Shown: positions 3,846-64,000, counted from the stretch's first letter. The stretch: DNA of 64,000 nucleotides from an uncultured virus (IMG/VR IMGVR_UViG_2061766007_000865) (IMGVR_UViG_2061766007_000865), one strand, 5' to 3'. Notes: generated by a model from the sequence alone, not told the origin. A program made the numbers and translations.

Positions 3846-4466
3846 TTTGGCAACAATAAACAGTTAAAGGAAGATATTGAAACACAAGGTTGGCATGTTC
3901 CAAAACCATTTGTTGTGGATGCAGTCTTCCAAAAATACAATATTAAGAACGCTAACGGTAGAATATATCCAGAAGAAGTATTAAAGAAACAAGTTGAATT
4001 ATATCAACAGAAAATAGATGATAAAAGGGCGTTATCAGAATTAAATCATCCAAGTGAGAGTACAATTGACCTTGGAAGAATATCACATAATATCATTGAA
4101 CTACACTGGGTTGGTCAAACACTTGTTGGAAAGATGCAATTAAATGTTACTGAGGGTTTTAGAAGATATGGAATAGTATCTACTTGTGGAGACCATGCAG
4201 CACAATTGCTTCTACAAGGATGGAAGATTGGAGTGTCTTCAAGGGGAGTAGGGTCAGTTGAACAGCGCCTAGGACAATATATAGTTGGGGATGATTTCGA
4301 GCTTATCTGTTTTGACATTGTGTCAGACCCATCGACAAATAATGCATTTATTACTACAGATGGAGAAATTGGTCTACAACCATATATTGAAAATAACGAA
4401 ACAAATAATTTAAAACCTTCGATAAACGAAAAGATTTCAAGAATTAAACAAGTACTTTCCTCATAA
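3846..4466 (+). CDS. Prohead maturation protease (T4 gp21-like), 5' end lost in gap
   Basis: 'KNANGRIYP', 'ELNHP', 'ISHNI', 'IGVSSRGVGS', 'FDIVSDPS' motifs. The frame stays open upstream of the GTG at 3915 to the gap. Confidence 0.93.
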   Translation, partial: FGNNKQLKEDIETQGWHVPKPFVVDAVFQKYNIKNANGRIYPEEVLKKQVELYQQKIDDKRALSELNHPSESTIDLGRISHNIIELHWVGQTLVGKMQLNVTEGFRRYGIVSTCGDHAAQLLLQGWKIGVSSRGVGSVEQRLGQYIVGDDFELICFDIVSDPSTNNAFITTDGEIGLQPYIENNETNNLKPSINEKISRIKQVLSS

Positions 4467-4507: not shown

Positions 4508-5716
4508 ATGAAGACAACTGAAGAATTTAGAGAAGAACTGTATTCAAAATTTGGAAATAGATTAATAGTTCCAGAGGATGCTGTATATCTAGGCAGCAAA
4601 AAGAATATAAAGGTTATTTGTCCTAAACATGGAGAAAAATGGATGAGGCCAAATAATCTTTTAAATGGCTCACAATGTAGAGATTGCGGCTATGAGATTG
4701 TTTCTAAAAAGAACAGTGATACTCCACAAGAGTTTTTAGAAAAAGCACATAAAATACATGGTTGCAACTATGAATACCCATTTATACACGATGAATATGG
4801 AAAAGTTGAAAAGATACACATTTTATGTAAGAAATGCGGAAGGATATTTGAACAACGTCCAGCATTGCATATTTTTGGACATGGGTGTTCATTTTGTTAT
4901 CCGTTTGGAACAAGGTATACAACAGAAACATTAAAAGAAAAAATAAAGGACAAACACCCAACAATTGAATTACTTAGTGAACATAATGGAGATAATGATT
5001 CAAAAATTACTGTAAAGTGTATTAAACACAATATTACTTGGGAAACTACACCACACCGCCTATCACAGCAAAAGCATGCTTGTAAAGAATGTTATAAAGA
5101 AGATAGAATTAATAAGATAAGAGAATATCAATCTAAAAAATTCCAAGAATTTATAAATGAGCACTATGCACCATTATATGATATTTCTAATGTTAAATAC
5201 ATCAACACTAGCACTAATGTCAAACTAATTTGCCCAATTCACGGAGAATTTTCACTACCGCCACACAAAATGTTATCTAGGCTTGATGGTTGTCCGTATT
5301 GTAAAGAGAGCCATTTAGAGCGAGAAACAAGGCTAGTTCTTGATAAACTAGGACTTAAATATGAAAGAGAAAAAACATTTGATTGGCTCAAATACAAGAG
5401 CAACATGTTCTTAGACTTTTACATGCCAAAATACAACATAGCAATCGAATGCCAAGGTATACAACATATAGATGGAAGAAATGGCACAATTATGACAAAG
5501 AAACAAACTTTTGGCGAAAGAGCTGAAATGGATAAGCTAAAGTATAAATTATGCCTTGAAAATAATATTCCAATAATATACATTTTCAATAAAGATAAAT
5601 CTTCGAAAAGACTTAATGAACAATTTGAACATATTTATGACGATGCAATATTTATTGAAGATATTAATAATGATAACAATATTTTATTAAAAGCAATAAA
5701 TGAAAAAAGTGATTAG
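4508..5716 (+). CDS. Free-standing homing endonuclease (repeated CPxHG..CxxC zinc-ribbon units plus C-terminal Vsr/DUF559-like nuclease)
   Basis: Repeated 'ICPKHGE..P..L..G..C..C' units; C-terminal 'LDFYMPKYNIAIECQGIQH...DKLKYKLC'. Confidence 0.8.
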   Translation: MKTTEEFREELYSKFGNRLIVPEDAVYLGSKKNIKVICPKHGEKWMRPNNLLNGSQCRDCGYEIVSKKNSDTPQEFLEKAHKIHGCNYEYPFIHDEYGKVEKIHILCKKCGRIFEQRPALHIFGHGCSFCYPFGTRYTTETLKEKIKDKHPTIELLSEHNGDNDSKITVKCIKHNITWETTPHRLSQQKHACKECYKEDRINKIREYQSKKFQEFINEHYAPLYDISNVKYINTSTNVKLICPIHGEFSLPPHKMLSRLDGCPYCKESHLERETRLVLDKLGLKYEREKTFDWLKYKSNMFLDFYMPKYNIAIECQGIQHIDGRNGTIMTKKQTFGERAEMDKLKYKLCLENNIPIIYIFNKDKSSKRLNEQFEHIYDDAIFIEDINNDNNILLKAINEKSD

Positions 5717-24934: not shown

Positions 24935-26158
24935 TCAACCAACACTAAGTGGCATTTTTATTATTGGGTCACATTTATATCCGATAATTTTAAAATCTTC
25001 ATATTTAAAATCTTCCACAGATTTCTGGTCGTCTTCAATCACTAATTTAGGTAATTCATCATATCCTTTTCTTTTTAGATGTTCTTGAACACCTTCCATT
25101 TGATTTAAGTAAATGTGACAATCTCCAAGAGAACCAATTAATTCATCTGGAACCATATTTGTCAGTTTTGCAATCATATATGTAAGAGCTGCATAGGAGC
25201 TTATATTCCAGCATAATCCTAGTGGAACATCCACACTTCTTTGAGTCCACATACATGATAGTCCATACTTTGGAATGTCTGCGATGTCATAATCACTTCC
25301 ATCATTAGGCATTTTCACATATGTGTCATCAGCGTCTTTTGTGTATTCCTTGAACCAGTCATAATATTTTTGAGGAAGTTCACCGTTTGCATGTCTTTCT
25401 TGAAAGATTTTCGCTCTTTCTCGCCTAGTTAACTCCCTTGTGTAGAATTGGAACATAACGTGACAAGGAGGTAGCGCCATTTCATCTAATTGGTCTGGAT
25501 TAAATGCCATACACAACATCCTTCTATCATTTGGATTGGTCTTTAACGTATTGATAATGTTTTGGATTTGGTCAACCCTATTATAGCCAAATGCTCTCCA
25601 CTGCTTACCATAAACAGGTCCCAAGTCACCAAATCTATACACTGACATAAAAGAGCCGTGTATCTCAACCCTTTGTAGGGTTAAATCAATAAACTCTTCT
25701 TTTGTAATGTTTTTTAACCACTCTGTATCACGATGTTTAAGTTCGTTCTCAATCCAATATTCATAATGTGGTTTTCTTTCTGCTAGCACACCTTCATCAT
25801 CACTGATACAAATCATAAACTCATTAGTTAATGGACGCTTACTGAAACCTTCAGCGACTTCTGTCTTGAACCAGCGGTATGCGTCATCATCCCAAATGTG
25901 TACACCATTCCTAACAAGGTACTCAATATTCATACTACCATGAGAATTGAAAGGTCTCTGCAAGAACCAAAGCAATTCATGGATAACTCCCTTGGTAAAC
26001 ACTTTCTTTGTTGTTAGAAGTGGAAATCCTTCTTTGAGGTCAAATCTCAGTTGTCTGCCGAATACAGACTTGACTTGTCCAGCTCTAGTGTCTTTTTCGA
26101 CACCGTTTTCCATTATATCTCGTAATAGTGAGATGTATTCTTCGTCGCATTTTGTCAT
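24935..26158 (-). CDS. thyA: Thymidylate synthase with large insertions
   Basis: 'FPLLTTKKV', 'ELLWFL', 'GDLGPVYGKQWR', 'MALPPCH', 'QRSVDVPLGLCWN', 'GDCHIYLN'. Confidence 0.95.
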   Translation of the reverse strand: MTKCDEEYISLLRDIMENGVEKDTRAGQVKSVFGRQLRFDLKEGFPLLTTKKVFTKGVIHELLWFLQRPFNSHGSMNIEYLVRNGVHIWDDDAYRWFKTEVAEGFSKRPLTNEFMICISDDEGVLAERKPHYEYWIENELKHRDTEWLKNITKEEFIDLTLQRVEIHGSFMSVYRFGDLGPVYGKQWRAFGYNRVDQIQNIINTLKTNPNDRRMLCMAFNPDQLDEMALPPCHVMFQFYTRELTRRERAKIFQERHANGELPQKYYDWFKEYTKDADDTYVKMPNDGSDYDIADIPKYGLSCMWTQRSVDVPLGLCWNISSYAALTYMIAKLTNMVPDELIGSLGDCHIYLNQMEGVQEHLKRKGYDELPKLVIEDDQKSVEDFKYEDFKIIGYKCDPIIKMPLSVG

Positions 26159-31536: not shown

Positions 31537-31568
31537 TTTGTTTTTCTAAAAAAAATTGTATATCTTTG
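31537..31568 (+). promoter_or_regulatory. Bacteroidota-type promoter
   Basis: TTTG-N20-TATCTTTG. Confidence 0.8.
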
Positions 31569-48350: not shown

Positions 48351-49226
48351 TCATATAATCTTCTCCTTCTTTATTATCTTTATATCTTTTGGGTTGAATA
48401 TGACATAATTGGTGTTCTTTGAGCTATTCGCTGTCACATCTAGCCACTTTATACCCTTATATCCCTCTTTGTATAAGAATTCAGAGGTCTCTTTATCATC
48501 ACCCAATATCGACGCTATCGTTCCATACAAATCCCCACCATCTTGGCAATCGCATATGTATTTGCACTCCTCATTCCAAAATTCATTCTCATAACCCTTA
48601 TAAGCTTCTCTGCCATACTCATTCTCTGTTGTGTAATACTTGAAAAAATCCCTAGCTATCTTATTGGCAGTCGCTCTAGAAACGCCCTTATAAGATAAGT
48701 AAGGAGCGTTTGGTACTTTAACAGTGTATATGTACCCACCTTTTGAATATTCTTTTGCAACTTGAGGATTATTACTTAGATAGACACCATATCCGTATGT
48801 TTGCTGCCCCCAACCGCTACCTAGGAAAGCCAAATCGAATTCTGAAAACTCTGCTTGAGTCCCATGAAACAAATCCAACTCATTAATTGATTCAATAATT
48901 GCACGTCTGATAATAGATTCATTTTTCTCCCAATCATAATCTATATTGTCCTTTTCCCCATTATAGGTATAGTAATCACCCATATCTGCTTGTTTTAAAG
49001 GTTTCTGAGGCACTTTCATAGCCAAACCTTTATCGTATTTCACTGCCTCGTTAAAGTGCCTTGTAATGGCAGTAATGAGACTTTGGTCATAACCTATCTT
49101 ACCACCAAACTGCTTCTTCGTATATCCAAGTTTATTAGCCATATACATAATGGTTTGCGGCTTGAACTTATAACACTGCCCTTCAGTTCTGAATCTCTTT
49201 ATTATCTCATTTATTGTTAAAATCAT
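48351..49226 (-). CDS. ADP-ribosyltransferase-like (ART-PolyVal-type) protein
   Basis: 'LFHGT..EF..FD...GSG.G...YGYGVYLS....AKEY', 'GYKGIKW...NYVIFNP'; preceded by the 'IIESINE' spacer. Confidence 0.7.
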   Translation of the reverse strand: MILTINEIIKRFRTEGQCYKFKPQTIMYMANKLGYTKKQFGGKIGYDQSLITAITRHFNEAVKYDKGLAMKVPQKPLKQADMGDYYTYNGEKDNIDYDWEKNESIIRRAIIESINELDLFHGTQAEFSEFDLAFLGSGWGQQTYGYGVYLSNNPQVAKEYSKGGYIYTVKVPNAPYLSYKGVSRATANKIARDFFKYYTTENEYGREAYKGYENEFWNEECKYICDCQDGGDLYGTIASILGDDKETSEFLYKEGYKGIKWLDVTANSSKNTNYVIFNPKDIKIIKKEKII

Positions 49227-49290
49227 GTCTGCTAAAACTATTTCATACACATAAATATCAACTAATCATTAAAAGATTTTTAGTGATTTA

Positions 49291-49322
49291 TTTGTTTTTT
49301 TAACTTTTTTTTAATATCTTTG
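49291..49322 (+). promoter_or_regulatory. Bacteroidota-type promoter for the polB N-half
   Basis: TTTG-N20-TATCTTTG. Confidence 0.8.
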
Positions 49323-49397
49323 CAACAAACTATAGAAACTGATGACATCTCAGTGTGTCTCTAGGTTTAAAAACTAATAGAACTAAACGATTCAACT

Positions 49398-51906
49398 ATG
49401 AAGGAAATTACAACAGAGGTTGTCAACACCTTTCTAAACGGACATGACCCAATGGAACGAATTATCTCCATTGAATGCGCTTGGAACGAAGATAAAGTCA
49501 GCATCATCTATGTTGACCATAATGGAATCAAAAGAATCAAGCAAGATGATTTCAAACCCTTCATCTGGGTAAAACACAGCGCAGCAATAAGAATGTTTGG
49601 AGGAAATAGGTCTGAACTCAGAAAACAACTAGCCTATTATGGAATTAAAATAAAGAAACTAGTCACCTCAGATAATAATGGACAAGAACATGAACGACTA
49701 GAAAACGGATACAAATACCTCTTCTATGCAACTAGAAGAATGACTAACCAAACGTTCCAAAGCTTCTTCTCCAAGGCTGGAACCCCAATCCACCCAAAAC
49801 AGAAGAAAGACGAACCAAATACTAGCAGCAATAGAGAGTTTATGGGAGTAACACCAGTTGAACAGTATATGATTGCAACTGGACGCAGACTCTTTAAAGG
49901 CTATGATACCTATAACCAACTCAATCGCCTCGTGTTTGACTTGGAAACACAAGGTCTTAACCCTAGAATACATAGAATTGAACAGATTGGTATACGTACC
50001 AATAAAGGATATGAAAGGATAATCGAAGTCGAGGGAAACACAAAGGAAGAACTAGATGCAAGCGAGATAGCGGCAATCAAGGAATTTCTTAAGATATTGG
50101 CGGAACTGAAACCAGATACAGTGGTGGGACATAACTCCGAAAACTTCGACTGGAACTTCATCATCGTCCGCTGTGAACACTATGGCATAGACTTTTCAGA
50201 ACTATCACTAGAATATTTCAAACACGCAATATATAAGAAGAAAAAAGCATCAGTCCTTAAACTTGGCGGAGAAGTAGAATACTACTACCCAACAATCATG
50301 TGGGGACATAACGTCCTTGATTCACTTCATGCAGCTCGTAGAGCACAAGCAATCGACTCGAACATGAAGAAATCAAACTTGAAATACGTTACCAAATACC
50401 TTAACCTTAAGAAACAGAATAGAGTCTACGTTCCAGGCGATAAGATTACCGATACATGGAATATAAAAGAAGAGGTATTTGGACTCTGTGAGGAAGATGG
50501 AGATTGGTATAGAGTAACAGATAAGAAACCACTACTGGAAGGTTATAACCTCGTAAGTGGTAGATATATAGTTGAGCGATACCTTCTAGATGATATTTGG
50601 GAAACGGATAAGGTTGAAGACAAACTAAATGAGTCTAACTTCCTTGTTGGTAAGATNNNNNNNNNNAGATAAGGTTGAAGACAAACTAAATGAGTCTAAC
50701 TTCCTTGTTGGTAAGATGCTACCAACCAACTTCGCTAGAACATGCACCATGGGTACTGCTGGAATTTGGAAACTTATCATGCTTGCATGGTGTTATGAAA
50801 ATGACTTGGCAATCCCAGCAGCAGTGCCCAATAAACGATTCACTGGAGGACTTTCACGTCTCCTTAAGACTGGCTACGTTGACCGTATCGTGAAATTGGA
50901 CTATAATTCATTGTATCCGTCTGTTATCCTTACTTGGCACATTTCCACGCCAATTGATGTCATGAATGTCATGGTGTCACTTCTTGAGTACATTCTTACA
51001 CAACGAGAAAAGTATAAGGAACTCAAAGCCGAAGCTGGAGAAAAAGTTGATGAGTTTAAGGAAATGCTAGAAAGCGCAAAAGGAAACGAATCCACCAAAA
51101 TCAAGGAGCAAATTGCCTTCTGGAAAGCAGAGAAAAGTGGTAATGACAAGAAACAGTTACCCCTTAAGATTTTAGCGAATTCATTTTTCGGAGGCTATGG
51201 TTCACCAAACGTTTTTCCTTTTGGCGATATTCTTGCAGCAGAGAAGACAACTTGTATCAGCAGAATGGCGCTGAGACTTATGATTTCTCACTTTAAATCA
51301 ATTGGTTATGAGCCAATCGTAGGTGACTCATTTACGGCAGACACTCCATTATTCATCAAGTATGACGTTAGTGGTGACATCGACATTAAACCAATCTCAG
51401 AACTTATAGGAGAGACTGAAGTTGACCCATTGGGAAGGGAATATGACGTTGATGAGAAGCCTTATAGGGTTCTATGTAGAAGCGGTTGGGTTAAGCCTAA
51501 CTACATTTATCGCCATAAGACTAATAAACCATTATACGAGGTTTCTGAGGGCAGCATGAGTGTCACGGTAACAGAAGACCACAGCTTGTTCAATGATAAA
51601 CAAGAAAAGATTAAACCAAGTGAGGTGAACGAGAAGACAAGATTGGAGTACTATAAGGATAGTATTGACACCTCAAACAAGAGGTACAGATGGCTTGACG
51701 AACATAGAGCAAGGGTTATGGCGAAAATGCTTCTAGATGGAACAACTGATAGGGTTAGTGTTGCATTACTGAACACCACCAATTTCAAGGCAGTCAAGGC
51801 ATTCTTGGATGAATGGGGTGATGTGAACCCACTTGTGTATAGTAAGACAATTGCAGCTGGTATAAACTTCTTAAAAATGAAACTTCATGGGAAGAAAATG
51901 GAGTAA
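49398..51906 (+). CDS. polB: Family B DNA polymerase, N-terminal half fused to split intein N-fragment (break at ~50660 is an assembly overlap)
   Basis: ExoI 'FDLET', ExoII 'GHNSENFDW', ExoIII 'YLLDD', motif A 'LDYNSLYPS', motif B 'KILANSFFG', first half of motif C 'IVGD'. Confidence 0.93.
51328..51903 (+). mobile_element. Split intein N-fragment (192 aa, Ser1)
   Basis: D|SFTADTPLFIK; 'IKPISEL'; block B 'VTEDHSLF'; no terminal Asn before the stop. Confidence 0.88.
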
Positions 51907-51997
51907 ATTATTATACCATTAAAGGAAATTCTGAAAAAGCATTAAAAAGGCTGAATTTTTATGGCTCTCCAAATATTTATTCAAAAGGCGATATCAT

Positions 51998-53644
51998 ATG
52001 AGTAGATTCAACGAAACAAAATTTTTAGAAAAATTCTATGCTTTAAATGGTGATAGGTATACATACATGGGCTATGAAAATGGATTAGTGCAATTCTACT
52101 GTAAGAAGCATGATAAAATTAATTATGATACCCCATCGCACTTAGTAAGTGGGCGAGGGTGTAAAGAATGCGGTAAGGAAAAGCAACAGCAAACGAATAT
52201 ATTGGCAAATAAGAAAGCTAAAGNNNNNNNNNNNNNNNNNNNNNNNNTACACGGTGATAAGTATGACTACTCAAAGGTGAATTACATAAATGCAAAAACA
52301 AAAGTATGTATTATTTGTCCAATTCATGGAGAATTCAAACAAACTCCGCAAGCCCACTTAAGAGGGGAAGGTTGCAGAAAATGTGGAATTGAAGAATCGC
52401 ATAAGCTACAGAGAAAGACCACAGAACAATTCATAAAAGAGGCTAGGGAAATTCATGGAGATAAGTATGACTACTCGAAAGTAAACTATGTTGATGAGCG
52501 TACTGATGTCATCATAGTCTGCCCAAAACATGGCGAATTTAAACAAAAACCAATGAAACATCTGAAAGGTAGGGGGTGTCATGAGTGCGGAATAGAGAAA
52601 CTTTCCAAAATCAATAGTTTTACAACTGAGAAATTCATTGCTAGGGCAAAAGAGGTTCATGGTGACAAGTATGACTACTCAAAAGTCGAATATAAAGGTT
52701 ATTATGAAGATGTTTGTATAGTTTGTCCAGCACATGGTGAATTTTGGCAAACCCCAGATTCGCACTTACAAGGTTGTGGCTGTCAAAGATGCTCTAGTAG
52801 ATTATCTAAAAATGAAGACGAACTATATAATTTTATAAGTAAACTAGTTGGAAAAGATAATGTTGAAAAGTCTAATACTTCAATATTACCAAAACATAGA
52901 GAAATAGACATTTATGTCCNNNNNNNNNNNNNNNNNNNNNNNNNNNNNNNNNNNNNNCTATCATATTAATAAAACAAATTATTGCAAAGAAAATGGTATT
53001 TCACTAATTCATATCTTTGAAGACGAATATTGTGAAAAAAAAGATATTGTTCTTGCGAAACTGAAACACCTACTCAAATGTGACGATTCACCAAAGATAT
53101 CAGGAAGAAAATGCAATGTCTATGAAATCCCCTATAATGAAGCAAAAGATTTTTTAGACAAAAATCATTTACAAGGCTNNNNNNNNNNNNNNNNNNNNNN
53201 NNNNNNNNTGAGTTGATTGGCGTAATGTCTTTTACAAAGATTAAGGATAAAGAATGGGAATTAGATAGATTTGCAACAAACATTAAATATATTTGTCAAG
53301 GCGTAGGAGGCAAACTTTTCTCTTTTTTCACAAAAAAATATAATCCAACATACATCAAATCATTTGCTGACAGAAGATGGACAACTGATGAAAAGAATAA
53401 CATTTATACCAAATTAGGATTTATCTTAGAAGAAACATTAAAACCAGATTATCGATATGTAAAGGACGGATATTATCACCGCATACATAAATTTAATTTC
53501 AGAAAACAGATTCTACATAAAAAATATGACTTTGACTTATCCATGACTGAAAGCGAAATGGCTAAGAAATTAAACGCATATAAAATTTGGGATTGTGGTT
53601 TATTTAAATATGTGTGGAGAAAGAATAATAATTTTGAAATCTGA
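51998..53644 (+). CDS. Free-standing Hef-like homing endonuclease (zinc-ribbon repeats, Vsr-like nuclease, GNAT-like C-terminus); gapped
   Basis: Three 'HGDKYDYSKV.Y....V.I.CP.HGEF.Q.P..HL.G.GC..C' repeats; 'EIDIY', 'LIHIFEDE'; C-terminal 'ELDRFAT...SFADRRW...KIWDCG'. Confidence 0.8.
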
Positions 53645-53663
53645 AGATTTTAATATATCTTTG
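53633..53663 (+). promoter_or_regulatory. Bacteroidota-type promoter for the polB C-half
   Basis: TTTG(53633)-N19-TATCTTTG(53656). Confidence 0.8.
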
Positions 53664-53679
53664 CAAAAACTGAAAACGT

Positions 53680-53778
53680 ATGAAAGCAAAAAACATAGGT
53701 TCGACAAACGATTACGTATACGACATCCAACTTGATGGCACTGTCGTAAATGCACTAGGAATGAACATCATCTCAAAT
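53680..53778 (+). mobile_element. Split intein C-fragment (33 aa)
   Basis: MKAKNIGSTNDYVYDIQLDGTVVNALGMNIISN|T: block F 'VYDI' and terminal Asn. Confidence 0.88.
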
Positions 53779-55231
53779 ACTGATGGGTTCAACTTCCAGA
53801 TGCCAAAAGAGGAAGAGTTCCGCTATACCAAGGAGCACCCATACATCTCTACTGGTGAAGGACGTAACTCCGTCAAAGGTAAAGAATATACACGTGTGGA
53901 CGCTGACGTGGCAGAGTTTGAAGACTTGTTCTTGAACAAACCCTATAACGGCGGNNNNNNNNNNNNNNNATGAATATTGTGATGCTTGTATTCAATTTGC
54001 GAGAAAAAACTATGGGGATTTGATGCCAGACGGCAGTACAAAGAAAGTGGGTAATACAATCAAGTCACGCAAGATGTCTGGATATCTTGAGACCTTCATT
54101 GATGAAGGTGTTAACTTGCTTTTGCACAACAATGGTTATAAGTTCTTGTCGAATTATTATGGTTATATCGAGAAGATATATAACTATCAGATTCCAATCA
54201 GAGATATTGCATCAAAGGGTAATATCAAGAAGACCCTAAAGGAATATCAAGACGATTGTAATACACTTACCAAGGCTGGCTCAAAGAAATCACGCCAAGC
54301 TTGGTATGAGCTTGCACTTAGGGGAGGTCTTACGCCAAACGTAGGTGATACTGTGTATTATATCAATACTGGTACAAAGAAAGCTCATTCAGACGTTAAG
54401 CGTGTTACACACTACTATAATTACGTTGATGGCGAAAAGGTTGAGATAACAAAAGAATTGGAGAAAGCATATAAGGCTTACACCAAGGAACTGCCAAAGG
54501 GGGCAAAGGATAAGAAAAACAGACTCGAAATAGCTAGAGAGAAATTTGGGGCGAAAGTATTCGATGAGGATGAAATCATACTTAACTGTAAGCTAGTGCC
54601 AAAGGAGATTCTCGATACTGAGGATGATGTTCTTTGCAGTGATTATGAGGGGCTTGAGTACAATGTTGAGAAATACATTGACCAGTTCAACAACAGAATC
54701 AAGCCATTGTTGGTATGTTTCCACCCAGATATTAGGGATAAGATACTTGTGACCAATCCAAAGGACAAGAAGTATTTTACTGAAGAGGAATCAAAGCTTG
54801 TAAGCGGTTATCCAAACAAGGAGGGAGACCAAGACACATATGAGCAGTTGATGACTCTTGAGAGGAAGGAAATCGAATATTGGCTCAAGATTGATGAAGT
54901 GCCACCATTCGTTAAGGAATGCGGAATCGATTGGGGTGTTCTTGTTGAAAACTATAAGAAAGAGAAGGAAGAAGAGAATAACGCTCTATTCCAAGAGGAA
55001 AACAAAAAATACCTTGAGGCGCTTGAGGGAATCACAAACGATGAGGTTGATGAATTCGAGACAGAAGGTGTGATACCAACAAGACTTTCCTCACTAGTAA
55101 CCCTTAATGCATCAGACATGAGATTATACTTCAAGAAGATTCCAAATAAGACCCCCTCAACTGGTGGTTTCGTCTTCGATGATATACAGTATAACTATGC
55201 TGAGAGTGTGGATGCACTTGCAGATTTCTAA
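53680..55231 (+). CDS. polB: Family B DNA polymerase, C-terminal half preceded by split intein C-fragment (one gap)
   Basis: Extein begins 'TDGFNF' (rest of motif C); later 'ARKNY', 'KKVGNTIKS', 'GDTVYYINTG', 'YNVEKYIDQF'. Confidence 0.9.
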
Positions 55232-55236
55232 ATATC

Positions 55237-55270
55237 AAAAAAGAGCAGCCTTGGTTGGTTGCTCTTTTTT
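55237..55270. terminator. Bidirectional terminator
   Basis: aaaaagagcagcc-ttggtt-ggttgctcttttt. Confidence 0.75.
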
Positions 55271-55798
55271 CTATTTATAGTTTATCATTTTAAAATATTT
55301 ATTGAAATTGTGGTCGGAATCACATAAAGGAAAAAACATATAAAGATATTCGTCAATATATATGTCAAATCCCCAACCCTCACCATACTCATGACCATCT
55401 ATGCATTTATACCTATTACCTTTTATGAATTTACGTATAGAGTTCCACTCATAGTCTTTTATGCACTCGCATTCTGAAAAATTACTTGTATCATGTTTCG
55501 GCANNNNNNNNNNNNNNNNNNNNNNNNNNNNNNNNNNNNNNNNNNNNNNNNNNNNNNNNNNNNNNNNNNNNNNNNNNNNNAAAAATAAGTAACTTTTATT
55601 AACAATAAACAGTTATTGTTTTATATTTTTAGAGAAATTGTAAAAATTTGAAACAAACTATGTTTTTTCTAATTAATTATAAAATATTATTGAAAAGATT
55701 ATGTTGNNNNNNNNNNNNNNNNNNNNNNNNNNNNNNNNNGAATATATGAGAAGAAATAAAAGATTAAGAAAATTAGGATACCTAGGATAACAAATAAT

Positions 55799-62437: not shown

Positions 62438-64000
62438 TTACGCATTTTTTATGCATGATATTAAACTATCTATATTAGTAAACGTATTTTTTTCTGTGTA
62501 TATACCATTGAACTTCTCATCATTTAAATAATCAGCACCCTTAGTATTATCTTCGTCAAAATAATATAAAAGCTTAATATTTGCATCTTTACAACATTTA
62601 TTAAAATTATAATCACGCTCTATTTGTCCAGAAAGGCTTCCACCATAAGATTCATGAAAAGAATTTGATTCCATAAAATGTTGTTTCCCTTGACATTCTA
62701 TCATTACATTATAAGATTTGATGAAAAAGTCACCACGCATTTTTCCAAATATTTTTTCGTTAATATATTCTTTTCTAAACTTAATCCCTTCTTCTGTTAA
62801 CCTATTATTTACCTCCTCTTCTAATTTGGATACTGCATGAGCACATTTTGGACATCCACAGCCGTTTCTATCAATCTTTAAATGAGTTGCTGGCATTTGC
62901 CAAAATTCTCCATGAATAGGACATATTATGCAAACCTTTGTGTGAAAATCTATATATTCAACCTTAGAATAATCATATTTATCACCATGAAGCTTTTTTG
63001 CTCTTTCTATAAATTTTTCTCTTCCTATCTTTCTTCTTCTTTCTTTTCTTTCTTCTTTTGTTATATGAATCTCATCTAAATTTCCAGTAAATGAATTCAA
63101 AAAAGTATACGGTTTTATTGAGAATATTTCATTATTCGATTCNNNNNNNNNNNNNNNNNNNNNNNNNNNNNNNNNNNNNNNNNNNNNNNNNNNNNNNNNN
63201 NNNNNNNNNNNNNNNNNNNNNNNNNNNNNNNNNNNNNNNNNNNNNNNNNNNNNNNNNNNNNNNNNNNNNNNNNNNNNNNNNNNNNNNNNNNNNNNNNNNN
63301 NNNNNNNNNNNNNNNNNNNNNNNNNNNNNNNNNNNNNNNNNNNNNNNNNNNNNNNNNNNNNNNNNNNNTGTTTATGGCTTTTTTTATAAAATTATTTTCT
63401 TCACACTCTCTTCTTCTTTCTTTTCTTTCTTCTTCTGTTAGTTTAGGTCTAATCTTCTTACTCCTAGTGCTTTCTATATATTGCTTATGGCATTCTTTAC
63501 AACCACCAAACNNNNNNNNNNNNNNNNNNNNNNNNNNNNNNNNNNNNNNNNNNNNNNNNNNNNNNNNNNNNNNNNNNNNNNNNNNNNNNNNNNNNNNNNN
63601 NNNNNTTGTTTTTTGACCTTTCTATAAAATTTTTGGTATTAAAAATAAGGTCATTCGACATTTTTTTCTCTTTAACGCATTTTGGACATCCATTATCTCT
63701 TTTACTTATGGCATCAACTGTTTTAAAAAAAGAGCCATGCTTAGGACAAATTATTTCAACTACCTCTGTNNNNNNNNNNNNNNNNNNTCAATCTTTGAAT
63801 AATCATATTTATCTCCATAATAATACTTGCATTTTTTTATAATTTGCTCAGTGGATAATTGTCTTCTACTACCCCTCTTAAGCCCACTACAACAAAACGG
63901 ACAAAGACCATCCTTAGAATATAAGTGCGTGTACATGTTTACACTGAACTCACCATGCTCCTTACATATCAATGTAACTGGAGTTTGAGAGTCAACATAT
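62438..64000 (-). CDS. Zinc-ribbon repeat / Vsr-like homing endonuclease gene(s), heavily gapped
   Basis: 'HGDKYDYSKVEY...ICPIHGEFWQ', 'GDFFIKSYNVMIECQGKQHF'; further repeat units at 63606-64000. Confidence 0.7.

Follow-up and report, generated by a model that had tools for sequence, protein, structure and literature searches.

A phage family-B DNA polymerase gene divided at motif C between putative split-intein halves

The stretch of DNA analyzed here, IMGVR_UViG_2061766007_000865 from IMG/VR, derives from an uncultured virus, and its full 64,000 nucleotides (nt) are referred to as the window. It carries a gene for a family-B DNA polymerase (PolB) that is divided over two open reading frames (ORFs). 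The break lies in catalytic motif C, and a gene for a putative homing endonuclease is located between the two parts. The first ORF (the N-half) consists of the N-terminal polymerase part, or N-extein, followed by an intein-like segment termed IntN. The second ORF (the C-half) opens with a short segment termed IntC, after which the polymerase continues as the C-extein.

The divided polymerase locus

A preliminary description of the window had placed the N-half, IntN, the endonuclease gene and IntC, and the coordinates of all four were verified from the sequence (Table 1). The N-extein matches the Pfam families DNA_pol_B_exo1 (E-value, E, 8e-9) and DNA_pol_B (E 3e-8), and its last codon is found at 51325-51327. 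IntN as a whole covers 51328-51903 and has 192 residues (SFTADTPLF...KKME), the codon for Ser1 being TCA at 51328-51330. The insertion is preceded by Gly-2 and Asp-1 and followed by Thr+1 and Asp+2. The first ORF ending in IntN and a stop, the second opening with IntC and the putative endonuclease gene between them together make up the fractured-gene arrangement.

Table 1. Features of the divided polB locus and stop inserts in related loci
Feature	Coordinates	Strand	Remarks
Promoter-like site TTTG-N20-TATCTTTG	49291..49322	+	the N-half starts 75 nt further on
PolB N-extein	49398..51327	+	3'-5' exonuclease domain, then polymerase domain as far as the first motif C Asp (...EPIVGD)
Scaffold-join artefact in the N-extein	50606..50666	none	duplicate of ~50 nt plus 10 N (N-run 50657-50666); non-biological
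IntN, Hint N-lobe (intein residues 1-119)	51328..51684	+	Ser1, block A DTP, Arg62-His63, Thr82-x-x-His85
IntN C-terminal extension, ~73 residues, four helices	51685..51903	+	putative LAGLIDADG endonuclease stub
TAA stop of the N-half	51904..51906	+	from the sequence and independent DNA contigs
Free-standing putative homing endonuclease gene	51998..53644	+	91 nt after the IntN stop; treble-clef zinc-finger, restriction-endonuclease-like and C-terminal Mom/GNAT-fold parts
Promoter-like site TTTG-N19-TATCTTTG	53633..53663	+	within the 3' end of the endonuclease gene; IntC starts 17 nt further on
IntC, 33 residues (MKAKNIG...NIISN)	53680..53778	+	new ORF, 35 nt beyond the endonuclease gene
PolB C-extein	53779..55231	+	starts with ACT (Thr+1), TDGFNFQMP..., completing motif C; stop 55229-55231
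Terminator-like hairpin	55237..55270	+	after the C-half; the sole such site found in 49000-55600
Stop insert	L002 9257-9280, L003 9257-9280, L005 2251-2274, L022 10143-10166, L023 3711-3734		in related loci, outside the window

As a scaffold the window is gappy and contains 42 runs of N. One of these belongs to an interruption of the N-extein. Contigs from all four public runs examined at this place join 50605/50606 to 50667/50668 and skip 61 letters, and in the relatives that have both flanks the two pieces bordering the gap match overlapping segments of protein in a single frame. Therefore, the interruption of the N-extein is an assembly artefact. Three further N-runs lie within the middle gene and one within the C-extein (53955-53969), and they shift the printed frame. 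The printed lengths of these runs are not the true ones; with the lengths taken from public contigs the flanking frames agree.

The stop codon that separates the N-half from the rest of the gene was a point on which the preliminary description had called for confirmation. DNA contigs from two other studies (runs X3 and X4) span 51904-51906, neither a difference nor an indel being listed there, and in 15/15 split relatives a stop lies no more than a few codons from this position. The split layout of the polymerase gene is real.

A stretch of 1.5 kb around the IntN junction was found in 20 listed public runs from 15 studies, nearly all labelled bovine gut or bovine metagenome, and two of these runs are a possible source of the window. 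Bovine gut is the source label in the records; the promoters of the window are of Bacteroidota type. When IMG/VR was scanned with the N-half, 26 related loci were recovered, and the contigs that carry them reach 412 kb. Their N-exteins are 45-92% and their C-exteins 42-95% identical. Among GenBank phages 13 distant records were matched, none of which covers 80% of the query. The records of five relatives, four of them rated 100% complete, contain exactly one PolB match each, and matches to PolA and Pol III alpha are absent from all five.

Alleles at the insertion site and the two intein halves

Each of the 26 loci was read forward from GD and backward from TDG of motif C, and three allelic states were found. 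The site is empty in six loci (L008, L015, L016, L017, L020, and L024), which read PIVGD/TDGFNF (a slash marks the insertion point). Five loci (L004, L009, L012, L018, and L019) have a contiguous in-frame intein of 355 residues at the same point. The remaining 15 are split like the window, with an IntN of 184-193 residues followed by a stop and an IntC that is a new ORF ending in SN before TDG. Since the six intein-less relatives are unbroken at PIVGD/TDGFNF, both junctions are fixed. The empty sites place the start of the insert at Ser and its end at Asn, with Thr as the first residue of the C-extein, and they show, as had been proposed, that motif C is rebuilt when the intein is removed. The distance between the halves can be short: in L025 only 25 nt separate the IntN stop from the IntC start.

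The window and its 15 split relatives give 16 split alleles, in which IntN is 43-74% and IntC 51-84% identical to the window. Ser1 is present in all 16, and in the five contiguous inteins as well. Also invariant in the 16 alleles are block A DTP, Arg62-His63 of the NX motif YRHK, which aligns to ...IMKH... of the Aes123 PolB1 split intein (PDB 9hth), and Thr82 and His85 of block B (VTEDHSLF). The NX motif, a His after Arg or Lys in the strand before block B, is reported to be specific to Ser1 inteins (PMC10189870). In IntC, Asp15 of block F (VYDI) and Ser32, Asn33 and Thr+1 of block G (...ISN/TDG) are found in 16/16. The pairwise ratio of nonsynonymous to synonymous substitution rates (dN/dS) was 0.18 in the Hint part of IntN and 0.17 in IntC, compared to 0.63 in the C-terminal extension of IntN, and together with the invariant residues these values point to functional constraint on the intein halves. 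IntN contains one cysteine (VLCRSGW, intein residue 50) and IntC none. Cys50 is invariant in the split alleles and Thr in the contiguous inteins, and the intein is not strictly cysteine-less.

The contiguous inserts of the relatives match two Pfam families, LAGLIDADG_3 with a score above its cut-off and Intein_splicing with E ~1e-7, a match that falls short of the curated cut-off. In the PDB they have weak matches to PI-PkoII, in the LAGLIDADG stretch (E 0.01), and to the Ser1/Thr+1 inteins of TFIIB. We compared the split halves to these inserts with hhalign. The alignment of 16 IntN sequences matched the first 120 columns of the contiguous inteins (six extein and ~114 intein residues) at 99.8%, and the IntC alignment matched their C-terminus at 99.3%, a score that is inflated because the alignment takes in 12 extein residues. 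Against the PDB the IntN profile found the fused, crystallized Aes123 PolB1 split intein 9hth (E 6e-5) and the TFIIB inteins (E 0.03-0.05). An AlphaFold2 model of IntN alone had a mean predicted local distance difference test score (pLDDT) of 80.7, and its top real matches in Foldseek were TliVMA, TFIIB, NeqN/NeqC, PolB16 OarG, and 9hth, with probabilities of 0.87-1.0. The reading of IntN and IntC as the halves of a class-1 intein is supported by this comparative, profile and fold evidence. Of the Hint domain expected in the preliminary description, the IntN profile (9hth) and the model of IntN indicate the N-lobe; the complete fold would need IntC, for which the IntC profile, Pfam and PHROGs gave no intein match.

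The part of IntN beyond the Hint lobe, residues ~120-192, was modelled with confidence as a four-helix domain (pLDDT >90 with AlphaFold2). Aligned alone with hhalign, it matched residues 205-291 of the contiguous intein (92.5%, E 4.8e-7), which comprise the second LAGLIDADG motif and the next helix; the GDG/hairpin stretch is missing. Atlas look-alikes of the extension at 0.88-0.89 include LAGLIDADG_3 clusters, which serve as leads only. We read the extension as a putative decayed stub of the intein's former own LAGLIDADG nuclease domain.

Expression signals and the rejoining of the polymerase

A host-type promoter had been proposed for each half. The Bacteroidota-type pattern TTTG-N17-21-TANNTTTG was found at 10 sites in the window, compared to 2.6 expected and with 0/100 shuffles reaching 10, and a site is located directly upstream of both halves, in agreement with the proposal. 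Sigma-70-type promoters numbered 25 with 21.6 expected, and this count is therefore uninformative. The sequence TATCTTTG ends eight of the 10 pattern matches, namely those at 31537, 33097, 34124, 34937, 38188, 49291, and 53633 on the plus strand and at 27466-27435 on the minus strand, and these eight sites look like one phage promoter class as judged from their sequences. A hairpin like those that precede the endonuclease gene in the cases of Dassa et al. was not significant here (z 0.29; 121/200 shuffles fold as well).

Altogether, we consider it highly probable that this locus of the window is an uncultured large phage's only replicative polymerase gene of family B, broken at GD/TD in motif C, and that its halves are rejoined by a split intein. 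The split arrangement is probably functional, and we infer protein trans-splicing of the PolB halves from the sequence comparisons. In such a reaction the two polypeptides would associate through IntN and IntC, which would fold into a class-1 intein. An N-O acyl shift at Ser1 would be aided by the Arg-His NX motif and the block-B His, and the N-extein would be passed to Thr+1 by transesterification. The terminal Asn33 would then cyclize, and an O-N shift would yield one polymerase chain with motif C (...VGDTDGF...) intact.

Several observations weigh against this interpretation. The splicing mechanism rests on homology. As single sequences the IntN and IntC of the window had no match in Pfam, PHROGs or the PDB, and the PDB matches of the IntC profile were due to chance (translin and others, E>0.6), with no intein among them. 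The Foldseek E-values for IntN were all >1e-3, and unrelated talin/FERM entries were among the matches. The penultimate His of block G, which is common in class-1 inteins without being universal, is replaced by Ser in the IntC of the window and in all 16 split alleles; the five contiguous inteins have His. For the dN/dS values dS is near saturation (~1.5), and only 46, 79, and 36 of 120 pairs were kept at dS 0.05-2.5 for the Hint part, IntC and the IntN extension. The catalytic core of the window's endonuclease is partly under an N-run. The contigs of RNA run X16 are thin and cover exteins only, and they are uninformative either way on transcripts across the gap.

The loss of the penultimate His in 16/16 split alleles could be read as a sign that the two chains form a non-covalent two-subunit polymerase, with the intein halves serving as association domains that no longer splice, an arrangement that would resemble the split NrdA described for phage Aeh1 (PMC3045599). 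We find this unlikely: the residues needed for chemistry and not for association (Ser1, the NX His, the block-B Thr and His, the block-F Asp, and the terminal Asn) are invariant in the same 16 alleles, dN/dS is ~0.17 in the Hint part and IntC, and motif C would remain cut between its two catalytic Asp residues. Repair could instead take place at the RNA level, the endonuclease gene being part of a self-splicing intron within a contiguous intein, and a cis-splicing intein would then be translated from the processed mRNA. Small group I introns are reported to abound in related jumbo gut phages (PMC12880540), introns that are small or unusual can escape Rfam, and part of the gap is concealed by N-runs. 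However, a search of Rfam over 49000-55600 gave no family at E<=1, group I and II introns included, except a chance match to Phe_leader, and nothing reached the gathering score in the window, L002, L013, L023, and L025. IntC also has its own promoter-like site and ATG, and the halves that lie 25 nt apart in L025 have a stop and a new start between them. No IntN-to-IntC joint was found in public runs, which is weak evidence because the runs are contigs. Taken together, RNA-level repair is very improbable.

That the polymerase gene is simply dead, or its break an error of assembly, could be suspected from the gappy scaffold with its N-runs and from the one join inside the gene that is demonstrably artefactual. 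The same architecture is found in 15 independent contigs, and contigs from other studies cross the stop. The intein halves are under purifying selection, the exteins are open, with 42-95% protein identity to relatives, and in 5/5 relatives' records this gene is the only match to an A-, B- or C-family polymerase. We regard this explanation as largely refuted already and give it hardly any weight.

The intervening gene, movement of the cassette and related systems

Pieces of the middle gene and an intact homologue of 560 residues in L022 match PHROG 559, 3339 and 681, which are labelled HNH or homing endonuclease; for the L022 homologue the E-values to PHROG 559/3339 go down to 1e-122. This homologue is a single uninterrupted ORF where the window has N-runs. 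The window piece 52250-52918 matches Pfam DUF723 with 32.7 bits (cut-off 20.9) and DUF4379 below its cut-off, and the piece 53213-53641 has a weak match to Acetyltransf_7. At least 7,999 database proteins match the family at E<=1e-10. Among 59 aligned homologues Pfam found DUF723 in 58, DUF4379 (treble-clef zinc fingers) in 53, a GNAT family in 35, and Mom in 23. The restriction-endonuclease-like MTES_1575 was found in 31/59 (best E 9.5e-6) and DUF559 in 7/59, the closest intact homologue, that of L022, reaching only E 0.032. An AlphaFold2 model of the 560-residue homologue (pLDDT 89.9) had phage Mu Mom as its best Foldseek match in the PDB (4e-7), and all Foldseek matches listed for the model fall in the Mom/GNAT domain. 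The alignment of homologues contains an invariant E, D, E, W-H and E-x-E (pattern E..D...E.....WH......E.E), which resembles the Vsr-like family described by Dassa et al. (PMC2677866). The middle gene appears to belong to a very large family that combines zinc-finger, restriction-endonuclease-like and Mom-fold parts, and its nuclease activity is putative.

Not all split loci carry the same gene in this position. Six of the 15 have an endonuclease of the window's type and six one of a second type, one of which is broken (L001); a remnant is left in L013, and two loci, including L025, have none.

The window contains two other members of this zinc-finger/endonuclease family (PHROG 559/681/9084), one at 4508-5713 on the plus strand and one at 62441-63100 on the minus strand. 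The former directly follows a prohead protease gene (3915-4463), which matches positions 47-190 only of the Peptidase_S77 profile.

In the extein tree the three allelic states are interleaved and need nine changes, where the minimum is two. Shuffling the state labels gave a mean of 10.2 changes, and 43 of 200 shuffles needed as few as the real labels. The five contiguous inteins are 90-99% identical, and their exteins are 62-90% identical to those of the window. The DNA of L010, which is split and has an endonuclease, was compared in 250-nt bins to that of L016, which has the empty site; upstream they are 87-98% identical for ~7.6 kb, and downstream 88-97% for ~4.7 kb. Of the 60 nt on either side of the site, those upstream are identical and those downstream differ by one base, and the difference between the two is a cassette of 2,143 nt.

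In the published gene-breaking model a free-standing endonuclease invades an intein at the endonuclease position and later decays (PMC2677866). The allelic states, together with the types and decay of the endonuclease, fit this model. A LAGLIDADG maxi-intein at the site would have lost its own nuclease activity, and would then have been split when a free-standing gene invaded the endonuclease position. During co-infection the endonuclease would cut intein-less alleles and drive the whole IntN-endonuclease-IntC cassette into them.

An insert of another kind was seen in the C-exteins of 5/15 split relatives, which read T-D-G-stop-L/I-G-F; the window lacks it and has ACT GAT GGG TTC at 53779. The insert is 9 nt long and consists of TAG or TGA, one codon and a Gly codon, right after the Gly of TDG. 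A hop from the first to the second Gly codon would restore TDGFNF or TDGFDF exactly, and a short translational hop and readthrough are candidates for its bypass. The arrangement recalls T4 gene 60 and mobA. General stop-codon recoding was rejected, as ORF coverage in these relatives is already 0.89-0.96 with code 11 and only the C-part of polB lengthens. A conserved restart codon was also rejected, the first in-frame ATG, GTG or TTG being found 6, 23, 59, 59, and 83 codons downstream. PolB is the sole polymerase match in the records of the loci with the insert, and no further IMG/VR contig with the T-D-G-stop-L/I-G-F pattern was found. No phage suppressor tRNA was found among all seven tRNA matches of G002 or in the scanned loci of G001 (part of its 44 matches), G001 and G002 being two related jumbo phages. 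The 44 tRNA matches of G001 include its own tRNA-Gly(GCC). In G001/G002 ARAGORN also predicted four tRNA-like genes whose "anticodon" has only two bases (tRNA-???) (L038 2034-2212, L052 1299-1374, and L043 1500-1572).

Elsewhere in the window, the thymidylate synthase ThyA (24938-26158, minus strand, 407 residues) has a large insert, its residues 7-241 spanning only positions 2-155 of the Pfam profile. An intein was considered for this insert and rejected, no intein motifs being seen in the translation. The divergent neighbour of polB (48354-49250, minus strand) matches ART-PolyVal, the ADP-ribosyltransferase of polyvalent proteins, above its cut-off (E 9e-10).

A penultimate Ser is not special; the cyanobacterial DnaE split inteins end in ...ASN. 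The features singled out in the preliminary description, i.e., the Ser1/Thr+1 nucleophiles, the penultimate Ser and the single Cys, are all present in 16/16 split alleles; the novelty it attached to the hydroxyl nucleophiles and the penultimate Ser was overstated. The suggestion that the intein might represent a new reductant-independent class does not hold, as naturally split, cysteine-independent PolB inteins have been published: Neq Pol, Aes123 PolB1 and PolB16 OarG (PMC10189870; PMC11923092), CP21, LCGC14 and GOM-OPS-1 (PMC12707363), and the PolB intein of phage MIJ3 (PMC6892783). Ser1/Thr+1 cis-inteins are also common in the literature on cysteine-independent split PolB inteins consulted here. 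The window is a further example of an arrangement already described and nothing new in kind.

Among the systems described, the closest solved sequence relative of IntN is Aes123 PolB1 from T4-like Aeromonas phages (9hth; PMC11923092; PMC13014065), the similarity being distant (E 6e-5). Like the window's intein it is located in motif C of a phage PolB, has cysteine-independent junctions and the NX His, and its break falls at the endonuclease position. Its IntN and IntC have 120 and 39 residues, compared to 192 and 33 in the window. The native exteins are given as Thr-2 and Val+2 (PMC13014065), which we read as an insertion that follows DTD and lies two residues beyond the GD/TD of the window. 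In the Pseudomonas jumbo phage MIJ3, likewise a jumbo phage, PolB is described as two ORFs with an HNH endonuclease ORF between them (PMC6892783). The inteins of MIJ3 and of the Salicola phage SCTP-2 share with the window Ser1 and a block B of ...VTEDHS..., but have ...VHN/S as block G, with the His retained and Ser+1, and the endonuclease is of another family (PMC6892783). SCTP-2, which has a mini-intein, was the only GenBank phage with a match that reaches into IntN (query residues 117-320). PI-PkoII (2cw7), an archaeal LAGLIDADG intein in motif C of PolB, has the LAGLIDADG stretch in common with the contiguous inteins of the relatives, and the TFIIB mini-inteins (5o9i and 5o9j) have the Ser1/Thr+1 chemistry and an N-lobe like IntN. 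In both cases the similarity is weak and local, and these inteins splice in cis whereas that of the window is split.

In the fractured genes of Dassa et al. (2009) the endonuclease has a restriction-enzyme or Vsr-like core (PMC2677866), and that of the window putatively has one too. The hosts of the split inteins described there are dnaE, terminase, DNA ligase and IMPDH, and their PolB (gp43) case is described without an intein; here the host is PolB. A LAGLIDADG stub on IntN and zinc-finger repeats and a Mom-fold domain on the endonuclease set the window apart from the cases in that account. The Jug (jumbo gut) phages, of 360-402 kb and predicted to infect Bacteroides or Phocaeicola (PMC12880540), are described in section 9 without split-intein halves or junction residues. 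The literature searched on split inteins in combination with jumbo, huge or mega-phages gave no description of the present lineage; table S11 of PMC12880540, which was outside that search, may list a split polymerase of the same kind.

Very few split inteins are said to be both cysteine-independent and active at ambient temperature, and they are in demand for the ligation of proteins under oxidizing conditions (PMC10189870; PMC12707363). We tentatively propose, as a possibility somewhat short of a probability, that the present lineage holds every stage from an intact to a fractured polymerase gene and that these stages are still being exchanged. The stages may comprise the empty site, a maxi-intein that is spreading now, a split intein with a stub, two types of invading endonuclease, and decay or loss of the endonuclease. 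The cassette would move as a unit, and its intein would splice in trans efficiently at mesophilic temperatures, with hydroxyl nucleophiles only and without the penultimate His, the 16 variants possibly being orthogonal to the few cysteine-independent split inteins in use. The lineage supplies 16 natural variants with a Thr+1 junction and an insertion point other than that of the Aes123 family. The three states at one site, together with near-identical genomes that differ by a 2.1-kb cassette, make up a natural series for testing the gene-breaking model of 2009.

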